Source: Candidatus Portnoybacteria bacterium (GTDB lineage: Bacteria > Patescibacteriota > Minisyncoccia > Portnoybacterales > GWB1-42-6). From it: DNA of 64,000 nt. The DNA lies in contig JAQTYI010000003.1 in assembly GCA_028688325.1 (NCBI GenBank), positions 32,116-96,115 on the forward strand, read 5' to 3'. Within the stretch, counting starts at the first letter, position 1; every line of letters begins with the position of its first letter. Positions 45,979-64,000 of the stretch are shown here, in pieces. The translations under genes and the position numbers were made by a program. The notes beneath the pieces are model-generated. The model was not told the DNA's origin. It was given only the letters and a program-made list of their open reading frames with translations, and did no database searches.

Positions 45979-46821
45979 ATGAACAACGCCGTCTTTCAAG
46001 AAAAATCCGTTCAAACAAGCGTCGGCAAAATTTTTTATTACCTGGAAAATTCTTTTCCGGGGCGGCCTTTTGTCGTACTGCTCCACGGCCTGTCTTCCAA
46101 CCACACGACATGGCTCAGCACAATGGAAGTTTTGCGCGCCAACAGATACAACTGCCTGGCGCCGGATATGCGCGGACACGGCCGCTCCGATAAAACAAAA
46201 GATGAAAATTTATATGAACTTTCCGTTTTTTCCGACGACCTGCAAAAAATAGCTGATAACGAGAATATCAAAGATTTTATATTGGCGGGTTATTCGTTTG
46301 GCGGCCAGGCCGCCATTGATTTTACCGCCAGGCATCCTGAACGGATCAAGGGGCTTATCCTTCTCAGCGCCAATCACGCGCCGTTTTTCAAATATCTGCA
46401 TCTTGATTTCCTGACTCCGCTCGTTGTCGGCGCGTTGAATTTTTTGGCCGCTCTTCTGCTCTGGCAAAAGCGCCAAAATTACCATTACTACCAACACGGC
46501 AAAACCGTCGGCTATTGGGATTCCGTTTGGGACGGCTTGCGCACAATGCCCATATCGGTGAATTTTTGGATGCTGGCGCGCGTGACGAAGCTTAATCTGG
46601 AAAATGAACTTAAAAATATCAAAGCGCCCGCCATCCTGGTTTACGGCCGAGAAGATGCGTTCATCACCAAAGCTGAAATCAACGCCGCAGCCAAAGCGAT
46701 GCCCGGCGCCCATCTGATATTTTCCAAAAACCCGGACCATTTCATAAGCACCAACGCCCAGAACGAAACAAACGAAATAATTTTGGAATTTTTAAAAAAA
46801 TATGAGAATAGCGATATTTAG
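45979..46821 (+). CDS. Alpha/beta hydrolase
   Basis: VVLLHGLSSNHTTW, nucleophile elbow GYSFGG, C-terminal His. Confidence 0.75.
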   Translation: MNNAVFQEKSVQTSVGKIFYYLENSFPGRPFVVLLHGLSSNHTTWLSTMEVLRANRYNCLAPDMRGHGRSDKTKDENLYELSVFSDDLQKIADNENIKDFILAGYSFGGQAAIDFTARHPERIKGLILLSANHAPFFKYLHLDFLTPLVVGALNFLAALLLWQKRQNYHYYQHGKTVGYWDSVWDGLRTMPISVNFWMLARVTKLNLENELKNIKAPAILVYGREDAFITKAEINAAAKAMPGAHLIFSKNPDHFISTNAQNETNEIILEFLKKYENSDI

Positions 46822-59299: not shown

Positions 59300-59328
59300 A
59301 AACCGAAACCGGAAAGGAGGTGGTCGGT

Positions 59329-60336
59329 ATGCCAAGAGAGCAAAAAACACATGAAAACATCTCCATCTCTTTGATTTGGGATGTCTGGGACCGGCTGTTG
59401 TTGCTCTTCAACGAAAAACACGGCCTCTGGATGCTGCCCGGCGGCCATAGCGAACCGGAGAAAGGAGAAAATATCACCGCGGCGGCCAACCGGGAAAACC
59501 TTGAAGAAACAACACTGTCTGACATTGAGGGATATCGTTCCCTTTTTTATCTAGAGGACACAAAAGAAGGCCGTCCTCGGGTATTTTTTGTCCACGAAGG
59601 GTTTTATTTGAAGAAGGATCCTCAAGATATTAAGCTTCCCAAAAAACTGCTGAAAAAAGAACATATCAGGGAGGCCAAGTGGTTTTCTCTGGAGAAGCTG
59701 GAAGACCTTCCGCTTTCGCCCATTGCCAAAAAAGCAATAGATATGGCTCTGCCGTTGCTTGACAGACGGAAAGACATCAACTCCAATCGTGCGCGCAACT
59801 ATCTTCAGAAAATCCTGTCTCAAGCGCAAAAAAGTATTAATAACCCCAACAAACTCAAGCAGATAGACCGGACGATTAAAAAACTGGGCGGGCTTATGGG
59901 CGGCCTGGACAAAGAAGGCGGCGGTCCGGCAATCAATTCGCCGGATATCTCCGAAAACAATCACGAGAAAAAAGACCTTGTGATAATAGTTGACGACGAC
60001 AGGTCCATCAGCTCCCTGACCAAAGAATTTCTGGAAAATTTTTACCGCGTCTTCACTTTTGACAATCCGACTGATGCGTTAAAATATTTGGAAAAACTGC
60101 CCGAGGAATCGATTAAGGCGATTCTGGTAGATTTTTATTTTCCAGCGGAAGCTAATGGCAAGACCGGCGTGGATTTCATTAAAAATGTGAACAATCTTTA
60201 TCCCGGCATAAAGACCATTCTCTTCACCGGCGATATTTTGGAGGCGCAAAAACATACCGGCTTATGCCTGCAAAAGCCGACGAGCTTTGAAGAAATCCTC
60301 GGCGCCATAAAGGGCAATGGCAAGACAAAAATCTGA
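59329..60336 (+). CDS. NUDIX hydrolase fused to a C-terminal receiver (REC) domain
   Basis: Nudix box GGHSEPEKGENITAAANRENLEETTL. C-terminal VIIVDDD...ILVDFYFP...ILFTG...QKP receiver motifs. aaaggagg RBS before the ATG. Confidence 0.75.
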   Translation: MPREQKTHENISISLIWDVWDRLLLLFNEKHGLWMLPGGHSEPEKGENITAAANRENLEETTLSDIEGYRSLFYLEDTKEGRPRVFFVHEGFYLKKDPQDIKLPKKLLKKEHIREAKWFSLEKLEDLPLSPIAKKAIDMALPLLDRRKDINSNRARNYLQKILSQAQKSINNPNKLKQIDRTIKKLGGLMGGLDKEGGGPAINSPDISENNHEKKDLVIIVDDDRSISSLTKEFLENFYRVFTFDNPTDALKYLEKLPEESIKAILVDFYFPAEANGKTGVDFIKNVNNLYPGIKTILFTGDILEAQKHTGLCLQKPTSFEEILGAIKGNGKTKI

Positions 60337-61175: not shown

Positions 61176-61350
61176 GTGATTTTGCTTTTTATTATTTTTG
61201 CTTAGAAACTCGACTATGTCTCTTCTGCTACTTTTTAACTCTATCAGAATTATTGGTTTTTGTCAAAAAATCAGTAAATAAAAGCCCGCCAACGCAATTA
61301 GTGCTGGCGGGTTCGTTTGATGTAAAAAATGATTCTGCGGCCGGTTAACA

Positions 61351-61947
61351 TCAGAAACCGGATGGCCAGATAAAAAAATACTCTCTTTCTTTTTTGCCTT
61401 GATTTTTTATTTCTTTGGTTTTAAAACCCATGGGGAAATCTAATTGGAAAGTGCTTGTGAATATCGCTCTTTCTCCATTTTTATCGTAATGTATTTCCGC
61501 AATTTCAAAACCCGTTAATTGCTTGTCAGCGTCCAACAACTTCATAACTTTGCATTCCGCTATAATACGCTTGCTGTTGTTGTCAACGGCGATTGCGCCG
61601 GCAGGCATCCGAGAAAGCATGGATATAGTATCTTTGTAAACAAAGATGTTCCTCCATTCACCGAAATCCTGGCATAGCACGATTGATTCCATTCCCATCA
61701 TTCCCCCGCCGATATTCTTGGTATATTCATTGAACTCCAGAGGCATTGGCCCTCTATAGAACGGCGGCTTCATCATATAGCTTTTCCTATAACTGAGGGT
61801 CGGGCCTCCGATGGAATTGACCAGCGCTTCAGTATCTTTCAGGTCTTGCTTATGCCAGAATTGCTCCACATCGATGTTCGGGCTGCTGCTACAAGCAGCC
61901 ATCAATAAAAAAATCGGGGCAACAATCAATGAAATAATTTTTCGCAT
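61351..61947 (-). CDS. Hypothetical lipoprotein
   Basis: Signal peptide with lipobox LMAAC. Confidence 0.55.
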   Translation of the reverse strand: MRKIISLIVAPIFLLMAACSSSPNIDVEQFWHKQDLKDTEALVNSIGGPTLSYRKSYMMKPPFYRGPMPLEFNEYTKNIGGGMMGMESIVLCQDFGEWRNIFVYKDTISMLSRMPAGAIAVDNNSKRIIAECKVMKLLDADKQLTGFEIAEIHYDKNGERAIFTSTFQLDFPMGFKTKEIKNQGKKEREYFFIWPSGF

Positions 61948-61977: not shown

Positions 61978-62630
61978 TCAGAATCTGCCCCATCCGACCC
62001 TATGGCTGCCGGGCCCTGAGCGTATCCGATAACCGTGAGCGCGTGCCCAGTCCGAACCGCCGCTATGCAGCTCTCCTGAGCCGCTGTTCAAAAAATCTTC
62101 AGCCATGCCTTTGTCTCCATACCGCATAAGCAAAGAATTTAATGTGCTCTGCGTTCCAGATATGCCCAGTTTGACGATTAAGAATAAAACCCTCAACCGG
62201 TCGATGTGGATCAATACCACCCTTGTCATTGAATCTCCCAGGGTCTGACTATCGTATTTTTTGAGCATATCATAGAGCTTGCGCCCTTTGACCGGATATA
62301 CCCAATTTGCCTGCATATCCAAACAAGCCGCGGCCGTGAAAATAAGCTTATCAACATAGAGCGCCCTCTTTGCTTCAATGGGATTGTCCTTTTGCAAGCG
62401 GGCTAACTGTTCCACTTCATGATCGTCCAGAGTATATGATTTGGCGATCTTAGCCCTGGCTTCGCCGACATGGGCACCCAAGGGATTTGACTTGATATAA
62501 TCTCCGTAGGACTCAAAACTGTCCATTTGCCTGGCTTTTTCCCAGGACTTTTGGTCAACCGTTGCACAACCGGTAAAGAGCAAAACCAAAAAAACAACCG
62601 CAACACCGCCGAAATCACACCCTTTTTCAT
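61978..62630 (-). pseudogene. Lipoprotein gene interrupted by a frameshift at an A7/T7 homopolymer within the signal peptide (possible phase-variable gene or assembly error)
   Basis: ATG at 62630 gives MKKGVISAVLRLFF, then goes out of frame. With one more T in the T7 tract (62588-62594) the reading continues as LVLLFTGCATV... for 200 aa with lipobox LFTGC. Confidence 0.5.
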
Positions 62631-63341
62631 GGCTATTCCCCTTTCTTTTGTTGTTAAAGAATATTTTTTACAGACAGCATTGCCTTGTCCCCCTATTTAA
62701 TAATGAAGAGTAATGCGAAATAAGGCAATAGTCAAATATAAAATAAAAAAGTCGCTTTAACCGAAGCGGCGCGGGAGCAATCGCTTGCTCAATTTCTTCA
62801 ATTCTTCATCACCTTACCCAATCCGACATACGGGGGAAGATTTTCTCGGTGTATTTTATTTCCCCCTCTCCTGGTTATCATCCGAGGACACCTTGAACAT
62901 AATACCGATACCTGACTATCAGACATACTGACTAATATTCCGCACTCACACTTAAAAACATCCATCTCCATAGTTTTACCCTCCCTAAGAACTACTTTAT
63001 CCTGGCCAGCGCCGATTTGGTGTTTCTCGCATCGCGCAAGTATTCCAGCTCGGCCGCTACCCTCATGATGTTTTCGCTTGGCCGAATGTGTGCCTATGGC
63101 TGCAATCACTTGCCAAGCCGATCGGGTCAAACCCAATCTTTCTGAAACTTCCCGCAGCGTCAGCTGCCTTCATCGCGTCTCTCATATTTTCCTCTTTTAT
63201 TGAAGAACAAAAGGCGTCGGATATCTTTTTAACAAAAACGGCACAATCTAAATCGCGTCGGTTTTGATAGTGATTATTTGACCCAAATCAAGTTTCTGGA
63301 TATTTGTTGTTATAAATCAGTACTGCAATTTCACCCCTATC

Positions 63342-63554
63342 TTATCCGCCAACTGTAACAGCCATTTTTTCGTGCCGGTCGACTTTATGGGACAAAGCGA
63401 CTATTTCTTGAAAACATGTATCGGCTTTTTTAGCATAACCGTCAACGGAAATCTGAAGATTATTAAAATCTTCTTTTAGATCCTTAAAATCCCCCTCTAT
63501 CTTATTGAACTTCTCGTCCAAATATTGAATTAATTCTGAAAAATCTTCTTTCAT
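63342..63554 (-). CDS. Hypothetical small protein
   Basis: ORF only; charged coiled-coil-like composition. Confidence 0.3.
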   Translation of the reverse strand: MKEDFSELIQYLDEKFNKIEGDFKDLKEDFNNLQISVDGYAKKADTCFQEIVALSHKVDRHEKMAVTVGG

Positions 63555-64000
63555 ATAACTTCATTATAAACCCAGCAAAACCTTGTCAAATGAGAATCTC
63601 GGGTCGTTTGAACCTGTCCACTGATGGCACAGATTAAAGAATTATACTGGAACACCATTGAACGAGTAATCCTTAATTGAAAGCAGGCCTATCAAACAAG
63701 CGGCCTTATCACTTTGACATGAAATGGTACCTGACACCTTTATTTTTCTCGCAAAAATTGCGAAACAAGACGCCGGGTTTTTTCCGTAAAATTTATTTAA
63801 ATTTTAATTTCCTTTATTTTTTTTGAAAAAAGCAGCAATAAAACCATGGGCAGAGCAACCCGCTTAAAGCCGGTAAAAAACAAAAAGGCGGCAGCCGGCA
63901 AAAAATTTGCCAGGCCGGTGAAAGTGACGGGATCCGGATGGTGCAAAAGCCAGGGTTTCCAAAAAACCCACCAAAGGCCGGCCAAAATCGGCGCCACCCA

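Follow-up and report, generated by a model that had tools for sequence, protein, structure and literature searches.

Classical homopolymer phase variation is exemplified by the poly-G tracts of Neisseria and Campylobacter and by the 7C tract of Mycobacterium tuberculosis glpK. At such loci, gain or loss of a single base in an intragenic homopolymer toggles the reading frame of a non-essential gene, alleles are heterogeneous within a clone, and the tracts are usually longer or G/C-rich and often conserved or over-represented. Homopolymer frameshifts can also be rescued during transcription, as in tssM of Citrobacter rodentium and in genes of Blochmannia endosymbionts, where the runs are longer or the frameshifts are retained across strains. 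In these cases (PMC4256274 and PMC3017870), an A/T run lies at the lesion of a frameshifted gene and polymerase slippage can give the correct product. A further described case is the 5' poly(A) tract of Listeria monocytogenes inlA, which is in frame as A7 and frameshifted as A6, with a stop after 8 amino acids (Orsi et al. 2010, PMC2831843). The two alleles segregate among lineage II strains, other lineages carry an interrupted tract, conversion proceeds at 5.5e-7 from A6 to A7 and at ~3.9e-8 from A7 to A6, and tract variation lies ~1000-fold above the average point-mutation frequency (PMC2831843).

Here, we analyze a window of 64,000 nucleotides (the whole stretch of DNA that was studied) from Candidatus Portnoybacteria, in which a run of seven T residues interrupts the signal peptide of a lipoprotein gene. 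The closest documented analogue is inlA. In both, the homopolymer is a short A/T run right at the 5' start of a gene for a surface protein, loss of one base brings translation to an early stop, close strains differ in whether the in-frame or the frameshifted allele is fixed, and other lineages lack an uninterrupted tract. Unlike the present case, reversion frequencies have been measured and independent origins demonstrated for inlA, which encodes an LPXTG invasin, whereas the gene considered here encodes a lipoprotein of an uncultured CPR bacterium. With classical phase-variable loci it shares an intragenic repeat in which one base more or less toggles the frame of a non-essential gene, as well as length polymorphism among very close relatives. 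In contrast to these loci, its state is fixed by strain rather than heterogeneous within a clone, and its short A/T tract is neither conserved nor beyond what composition predicts. It also departs from the tssM and Blochmannia cases in having an intact sister-strain allele and a run of only minimal slippage length: in E. coli, T7 is the minimum effective length for RNA-polymerase slippage, and poly(T7) and poly(T8) insertion reporters are rescued at ~5% and ~10% of the in-frame control (PMC6260861). We conclude that the frameshift is real, specific to the strain and of an ordinary homopolymer kind, in a lipoprotein gene that is not essential.

Reading frames and signals at the locus

The features of the locus are given below from upstream to downstream; the Shine-Dalgarno-like element and the intrinsic terminator were read from the sequence.

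62753-62768, minus strand: terminator-like hairpin with T-run, a consensus match only, ending the upstream transcription unit
62638-62645, minus strand: Shine-Dalgarno-like GAAAGGGG, 7 nt 5' of the ATG
62566-62630, minus strand: signal-peptide coding region, from ATG 62630 to the lipobox Cys codon TGT 62568-62566
62588-62594, minus strand: T7 homopolymer (A7 on the plus strand), signal-peptide codons 13-15 (TTT TTT T), the frameshift site
62403-62630, minus strand: frame read from the ATG in the T7 allele, a 75-aa out-of-frame product beginning MKKGVISAVLRLFFWFCSLPVVQRL, without a lipobox
61978-62589, minus strand: lipoprotein gene body in the -1 frame, 203 codons, with TTG 62589 as the sole possible start
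61351-61947, minus strand: second lipoprotein gene, 198 aa beginning MRKIISLIVAPIFLLMAAC, 30 nt downstream of the first and with its own AAAGGAGG RBS
61277-61311, minus strand: probable intrinsic terminator after the two-gene unit

The minus-strand ATG 62630-62628 starts MKKGVISAVLRLFF upstream of the T7 run. According to the original prediction, this ATG opens a typical lipoprotein signal, the frame is lost after the T7 run, and one extra T restores a continuous 215-aa lipoprotein with the lipobox LFTGC. The signal and the loss of frame are both confirmed: GAAAGGGG precedes the ATG at 62645-62638, and the frame opened there runs on as ...WFCSLPVVQRL... until the stop TAG 62405-62403. Addition of one T in silico does yield a continuous lipoprotein, MKKGVISAVLRLFFLVLLFTGC continuing as ATVDQ..., which exists as an exact protein in a sister strain, at a length of 217 rather than 215 aa. 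This repaired protein has a K-rich n-region, a hydrophobic core and the lipobox LFTGC (F-T-G-C).

Lipoprotein signals consist of a K/R-rich n-region, a hydrophobic h-region and a lipobox [LVI..][ASTVI..][GAS]-C within the first ~35 residues, a pattern that we take to be of the PROSITE PS51257 type. Applied by eye, this pattern is present in the T8 frame as MKKGVISAVLRLFFLVLLF-T-G-C22. The T8 allele encodes MKKGVISAVLRLFFLVLLFTGC across 62566-62630, whereas the T7 run of the window splits its two halves between frames, parting the ATG and n-region from the lipobox and thus from the mature domain. The downstream half has been annotated by NCBI as a 203-aa hypothetical protein with a TTG start (PHT44_03960, P0001), comprising one TPR-like motif and a conserved helical C-terminal domain of ~125 aa. 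Initiation at TTG 62589 gives MVLLFTGC..., which has neither an n-region nor an h-region and is too short to act as a signal peptide. No ATG, GTG or TTG occurs in the same frame between TAA 62670-62668 and TTG 62589, so no alternative start supplies a signal peptide.

Given that the terminator-like hairpin at 62753-62768 closes the transcription unit upstream, the lipoprotein genes are probably transcribed as a unit of their own. The terminator at 61277-61311 has a 9-bp stem, CCCGCCAGC/GTTGGCGGG with one G-U pair, and a 9-nt loop followed by CTTTTATTT; it falls outside the limit of our hairpin scan, which covered loops of up to 8 nt. A single transcription unit for both lipoprotein genes is suggested by the hairpins at 62768-62753 and 61311-61277. 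With its own AAAGGAGG RBS, the second gene should still be translated in the T7 strain. It carries a T7 run in its signal peptide as well (61913-61907, CCG ATT TTT TTA TTG = PIFLL), which is in frame in every assembly. The second gene had been taken to suggest a surface-protein pair. The gene is indeed present, but the pairing is kept at only one orthologous locus examined (L010, 50% identity) and is absent from the two closest orthologues with a recovered downstream region. No paralogues of the lipoprotein were found in the window or its flanks.

T7 and T8 alleles in separate assemblies

An exact look-up identified the repaired 217-aa sequence verbatim in a public collection (P0045). We read the tract in every fetched assembly encoding the 217-aa protein, truncated forms of it, or the identical downstream gene. 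The tract lengths are those of consensus assemblies, in which minority alleles stay hidden.

T7: GCA_028710785.1 (L068), contig JAQTTM010000001.1, 788,852 bp, Candidatus Portnoybacteria MAG, taken as the window's own record, with 100% identical flanks
T7: GCA_043955735.1 (L003/L067), 100% identical to the window over 5.3 kb
T7: Logan assembly of SRR22315507 (L004), 100% identical over 1.9 kb, contig seen in two samples
T8: ENA ERZ27247363 (L001/L069)
T8: JGI 3300029288 (L002/L005)
T8: Logan assembly of SRR8542065 (L070)

At least three T7 records were assembled separately, possibly from different samples or from the same reads, and the 203-aa T7 product carries two NCBI protein accessions. The JGI 3300029288 sample originates from leachate well LW4 of a Southern Ontario landfill, October 2017; for the accessions of the T7 strain, the literature returned nothing. 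Over 9.85 kb, the T8 sister strain differs from the window by 37 SNPs and 2 indels (99.6% identity), and it encodes the repaired 217-aa protein without any change. The synonymous SNPs at 62548 and 62407 go with tract length without exception; position 62548 is G in three or more T7 assemblies and A in three T8 assemblies. A metagenome scan with the lipoprotein recovered only one same-species locus, on a contig already among the assemblies compared, and a GTDB scan with the lipoprotein sequence gave no match.

Within the gene body, the T7 and the intact allele differ by two synonymous and no nonsynonymous substitutions, and there are no further stops or indels. Because ~1 neutral substitution is expected at 0.38% divergence, the undamaged reading frame has little discriminating power and is equally compatible with a recent knockout, a leaky gene or an OFF state that can revert.

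Orthologues and the encoded protein

The orthologue comparison, proposed originally as a check, returned both an intact allele and intact orthologues; the T7 allele is thus not one without an intact orthologue anywhere. Signal peptide and lipobox are intact in the homologues examined at 59-77% identity (P0002-P0011) and likewise in the more distant P0012 and P0013. From the intact state at 59-77% identity it follows that the in-frame T8 form is ancestral and that T7 is a one-base deletion, most likely by slippage. Conservation does not extend to the long tract: at the corresponding site, two interrupted T6 runs are seen in the 77% orthologue and no T run in the 72% orthologue.

No family in Pfam, NCBIfam or PHROGs matched the lipoprotein above its curated threshold. 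An AlphaFold2 model built with 32 homologues is confident (pLDDT 90.8) and entirely helical. Foldseek against the PDB found nothing beyond insignificant similarity to TPR/BamD and to HEAT-like alphaRep (E > 0.2), and a profile search of PDB sequences gave nothing meaningful. A profile search of 1.84 billion representatives retrieved 590 proteins at E <= 1e-10. Among the matches listed, the domain of ~125 aa (window 61978-62370) reaches the C-terminus or ends within a few residues of it, with the consensus ...RLRVLFLxVKLG...GDKxMAEDFLNSGS...GSHRVGWGxF. Its N-terminal partners are lipoprotein signals with 1-4 TPR-like motifs, ankyrin repeats, and pilin-like N_methyl segments. Relatives of the domain occur among many phyla, including Patescibacteria, Verrucomicrobiota, Planctomycetota, Desulfobacterales, Nocardia, Acidobacteriota and Chloroflexota. 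A GTDB family-alignment scan added only distant relatives of the C-terminal domain, which are uninformative on the tract. The protein may be a helical-repeat binding module displayed outside the membrane. The domain represents a widespread C-terminal domain family that has no Pfam model and no structural or functional annotation.

Homopolymer background of the window

The window contains 69 A/T runs of at least 7, compared with 9 +/- 3 in mononucleotide shuffles, a ~7-fold excess. A first-order Markov model predicts 75 +/- 11 such runs, so their abundance is fully explained by dinucleotide bias. Sixty-two of the 69 (90%) are in-frame KK, FF or FL codons of intact genes. The first 15% of the gene holds just 12 of these 62, which indicates that there is no 5' bias; against this background, the tract of the lipoprotein gene stands out neither by enrichment nor by positional bias. 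In the region shared by the two strains, 2 of 51 A/T runs of at least 6 changed length.

We found no other broken genes in the window. A screen of +/-1 edits at all homopolymers of the window was noisy, as adjacent genes and antisense frames give false fusions. Its strongest candidate, A7 at 46794-46800, was rejected: the edit joins two complete and unrelated genes encoding an alpha/beta-hydrolase and a GT4 glycosyltransferase.

Origin and status of the T7 allele

Homopolymer length is a classic class of sequencing error, and the perfect protein obtained by repair would be expected if the true sequence were T8 and the gene intact. The original prediction had accordingly named an assembly error as an alternative to a switch. 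That alternative is effectively excluded, as T7 recurs with identical flanks in the separately assembled records. These comprise two NCBI assemblies, a second protein accession and a single-run Logan assembly; moreover, T7 travels with a distinct SNP haplotype, and the other 62 coding A/T runs of at least 7 in the window are all in frame. Reproduction by different assemblers, an own haplotype and intact frames elsewhere together make an artefact very unlikely. The 203-aa hypothetical protein annotated from a TTG start is what remains of a conserved 217-aa lipoprotein, and the break is biological, not technical.

A T7 allele that is real might still be expressed on purpose, with an extra U inserted by RNA polymerase or a -1 slip setting a low level of product. 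In its favor, either a -1 ribosomal slip or one additional U gives exactly the T8 protein, and the E. coli reporters mentioned above were rescued at this run length. Nevertheless, the gene reads through in frame in the sister strain and in all orthologues, so there is no conserved requirement for frameshifting across the homologues. The phase of the run does not fit X XXY YYZ, folding of the 88 nt downstream is no better than that of shuffles (z = 0.33), and a leak of a few percent could plausibly occur as a by-product rather than by design. We regard such recoding as highly improbable.

Phase variation, as proposed originally, would mean that T7 (OFF) and T8 (ON) switch reversibly and at high frequency within populations, with assemblies reporting the majority state; the surface lipoprotein would thereby be varied and the downstream lipoprotein possibly affected via polarity. 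The proposal holds insofar as the tract is T7 in one and T8 in the other of two 99.6%-identical strains, changes the reading frame early in a gene for a surface protein, and has left the OFF allele without other damage, and short 5' A/T runs are documented as mutational switches, e.g., the A7/A6 tract of inlA (PMC2831843). However, nothing shows ON/OFF switching: tract state strictly follows haplotype in all 6-7 assemblies, and no pair of the same haplotype differs. Further points against it are the lack of tract conservation in orthologues, the common occurrence of equivalent runs in housekeeping genes with neither a dinucleotide excess nor 5' enrichment, and the low share of A/T runs that changed between the strains. 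In addition, T7/T8 is at the short end for A/T tracts, and the inlA rates are far below those of classical phase variation. We therefore consider this explanation unlikely, with the caveat that consensus assemblies hide minority alleles, so that mixtures of T7 and T8 may be present within populations.

The explanation that we favor, and hold to be probable, is that T8 to T7 was a genuine heritable contraction at an incidental tract, leaving a lineage-fixed loss-of-function allele that is reversible in principle. Most likely, slipped-strand mispairing at replication cut one T from TTG TTT TTT TTG on the strain's own lineage. Going by the sequence, translation from the ATG departs from the lipoprotein frame after residue 14 and ends at codon 76, and T7 cells would presumably make no exported, lipid-anchored protein. 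The tract itself would be an incidental by-product of Leu/Phe codons in an AA/TT-rich genome, not a dedicated switch. A +1 slippage event would restore the gene. A slight leak through RNA-polymerase slippage on T7 is plausible, and a -1 P-site ribosomal slip on UUU UUU U would yield the same product. The allele could be on its way to a pseudogene, or it could be an OFF state that has persisted for long.

On this favored reading, the locus offers a clean natural homopolymer knockout that segregates between near-identical strains of an uncultured CPR bacterium. That the T-run is a working contingency switch of this ultrasmall bacterium, by which the lipoprotein and perhaps its partner are toggled between and within landfill populations, seems doubtful to us. 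If it is true, no earlier phase-variable surface gene would be on record for the host-dependent CPR/Patescibacteria, as far as the literature we searched extends. Mixed tract lengths, should they occur, would provide a first handle on surface variation in episymbiont-like organisms; otherwise, the case is one of ordinary strain-level inactivation.

The neighboring variable region

A second homopolymer that varies between the strains lies at 63826-63831 (minus strand); the run, immediately followed by A8, is T6 in the window and T7 in the sister strain. It belongs to the gene 63797-64000, which runs off the window end, and is located near the 3' end of the reading frame for a polytopic membrane protein of 382/380 aa, upstream of the lipoprotein gene. 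The change from T6 to T7 only swaps the last residues before the stop, from ...LLLLFSKKIKEIKI (LFSKKIKEIKI) to ...LLLLFFKKNKGN (LFFKKNKGN). As this is the only other indel, both inter-strain indels are T-run changes, at most 1.3 kb apart, and run slippage is the dominant indel mode between the two strains. The T6/T7 tail of the neighboring membrane protein may be a sign that a small surface locus beside a strain-specific island is variable.

Synteny between the strains ends ~400 bp upstream of the gene for the 382-aa membrane protein (L003 1-7171 versus L001 1-7274, outside the window), so the variable lipoprotein locus borders a strain-specific island. Beyond the breakpoint, strain A carries N6/N4 methyltransferase, ParB_N-methyltransferase, radical-SAM and NucS-like genes, and strain B carries L33, a tRNA synthetase, RsgA and a DGR-like cassette. 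A 109-bp sequence 3' of the 382-aa gene (window 63525-63631) is repeated exactly at the synteny breakpoint 5' of that gene (L003 7171-7279) with 86% identity; with copies on both sides, the membrane-protein gene is flanked by direct repeats.

The DGR-like cassette of strain B (contig L001, 2011-3398, ~5-7 kb past window position 64000) consists of a bAvd-like gene and a reverse transcriptase. The reverse transcriptase ORF contains an in-frame TAA at L001 2814-2816, after which ...LKCDIRKFFASID... follows in the same frame. Beside the cassette, a 227-aa ORF (L001 1369-2052) might be a target gene.

Inside the window, the plus-strand gene 59320-60336 encodes an unusual 338-aa fusion of an N-terminal NUDIX hydrolase with a C-terminal response-regulator receiver domain, both assigned by Pfam.
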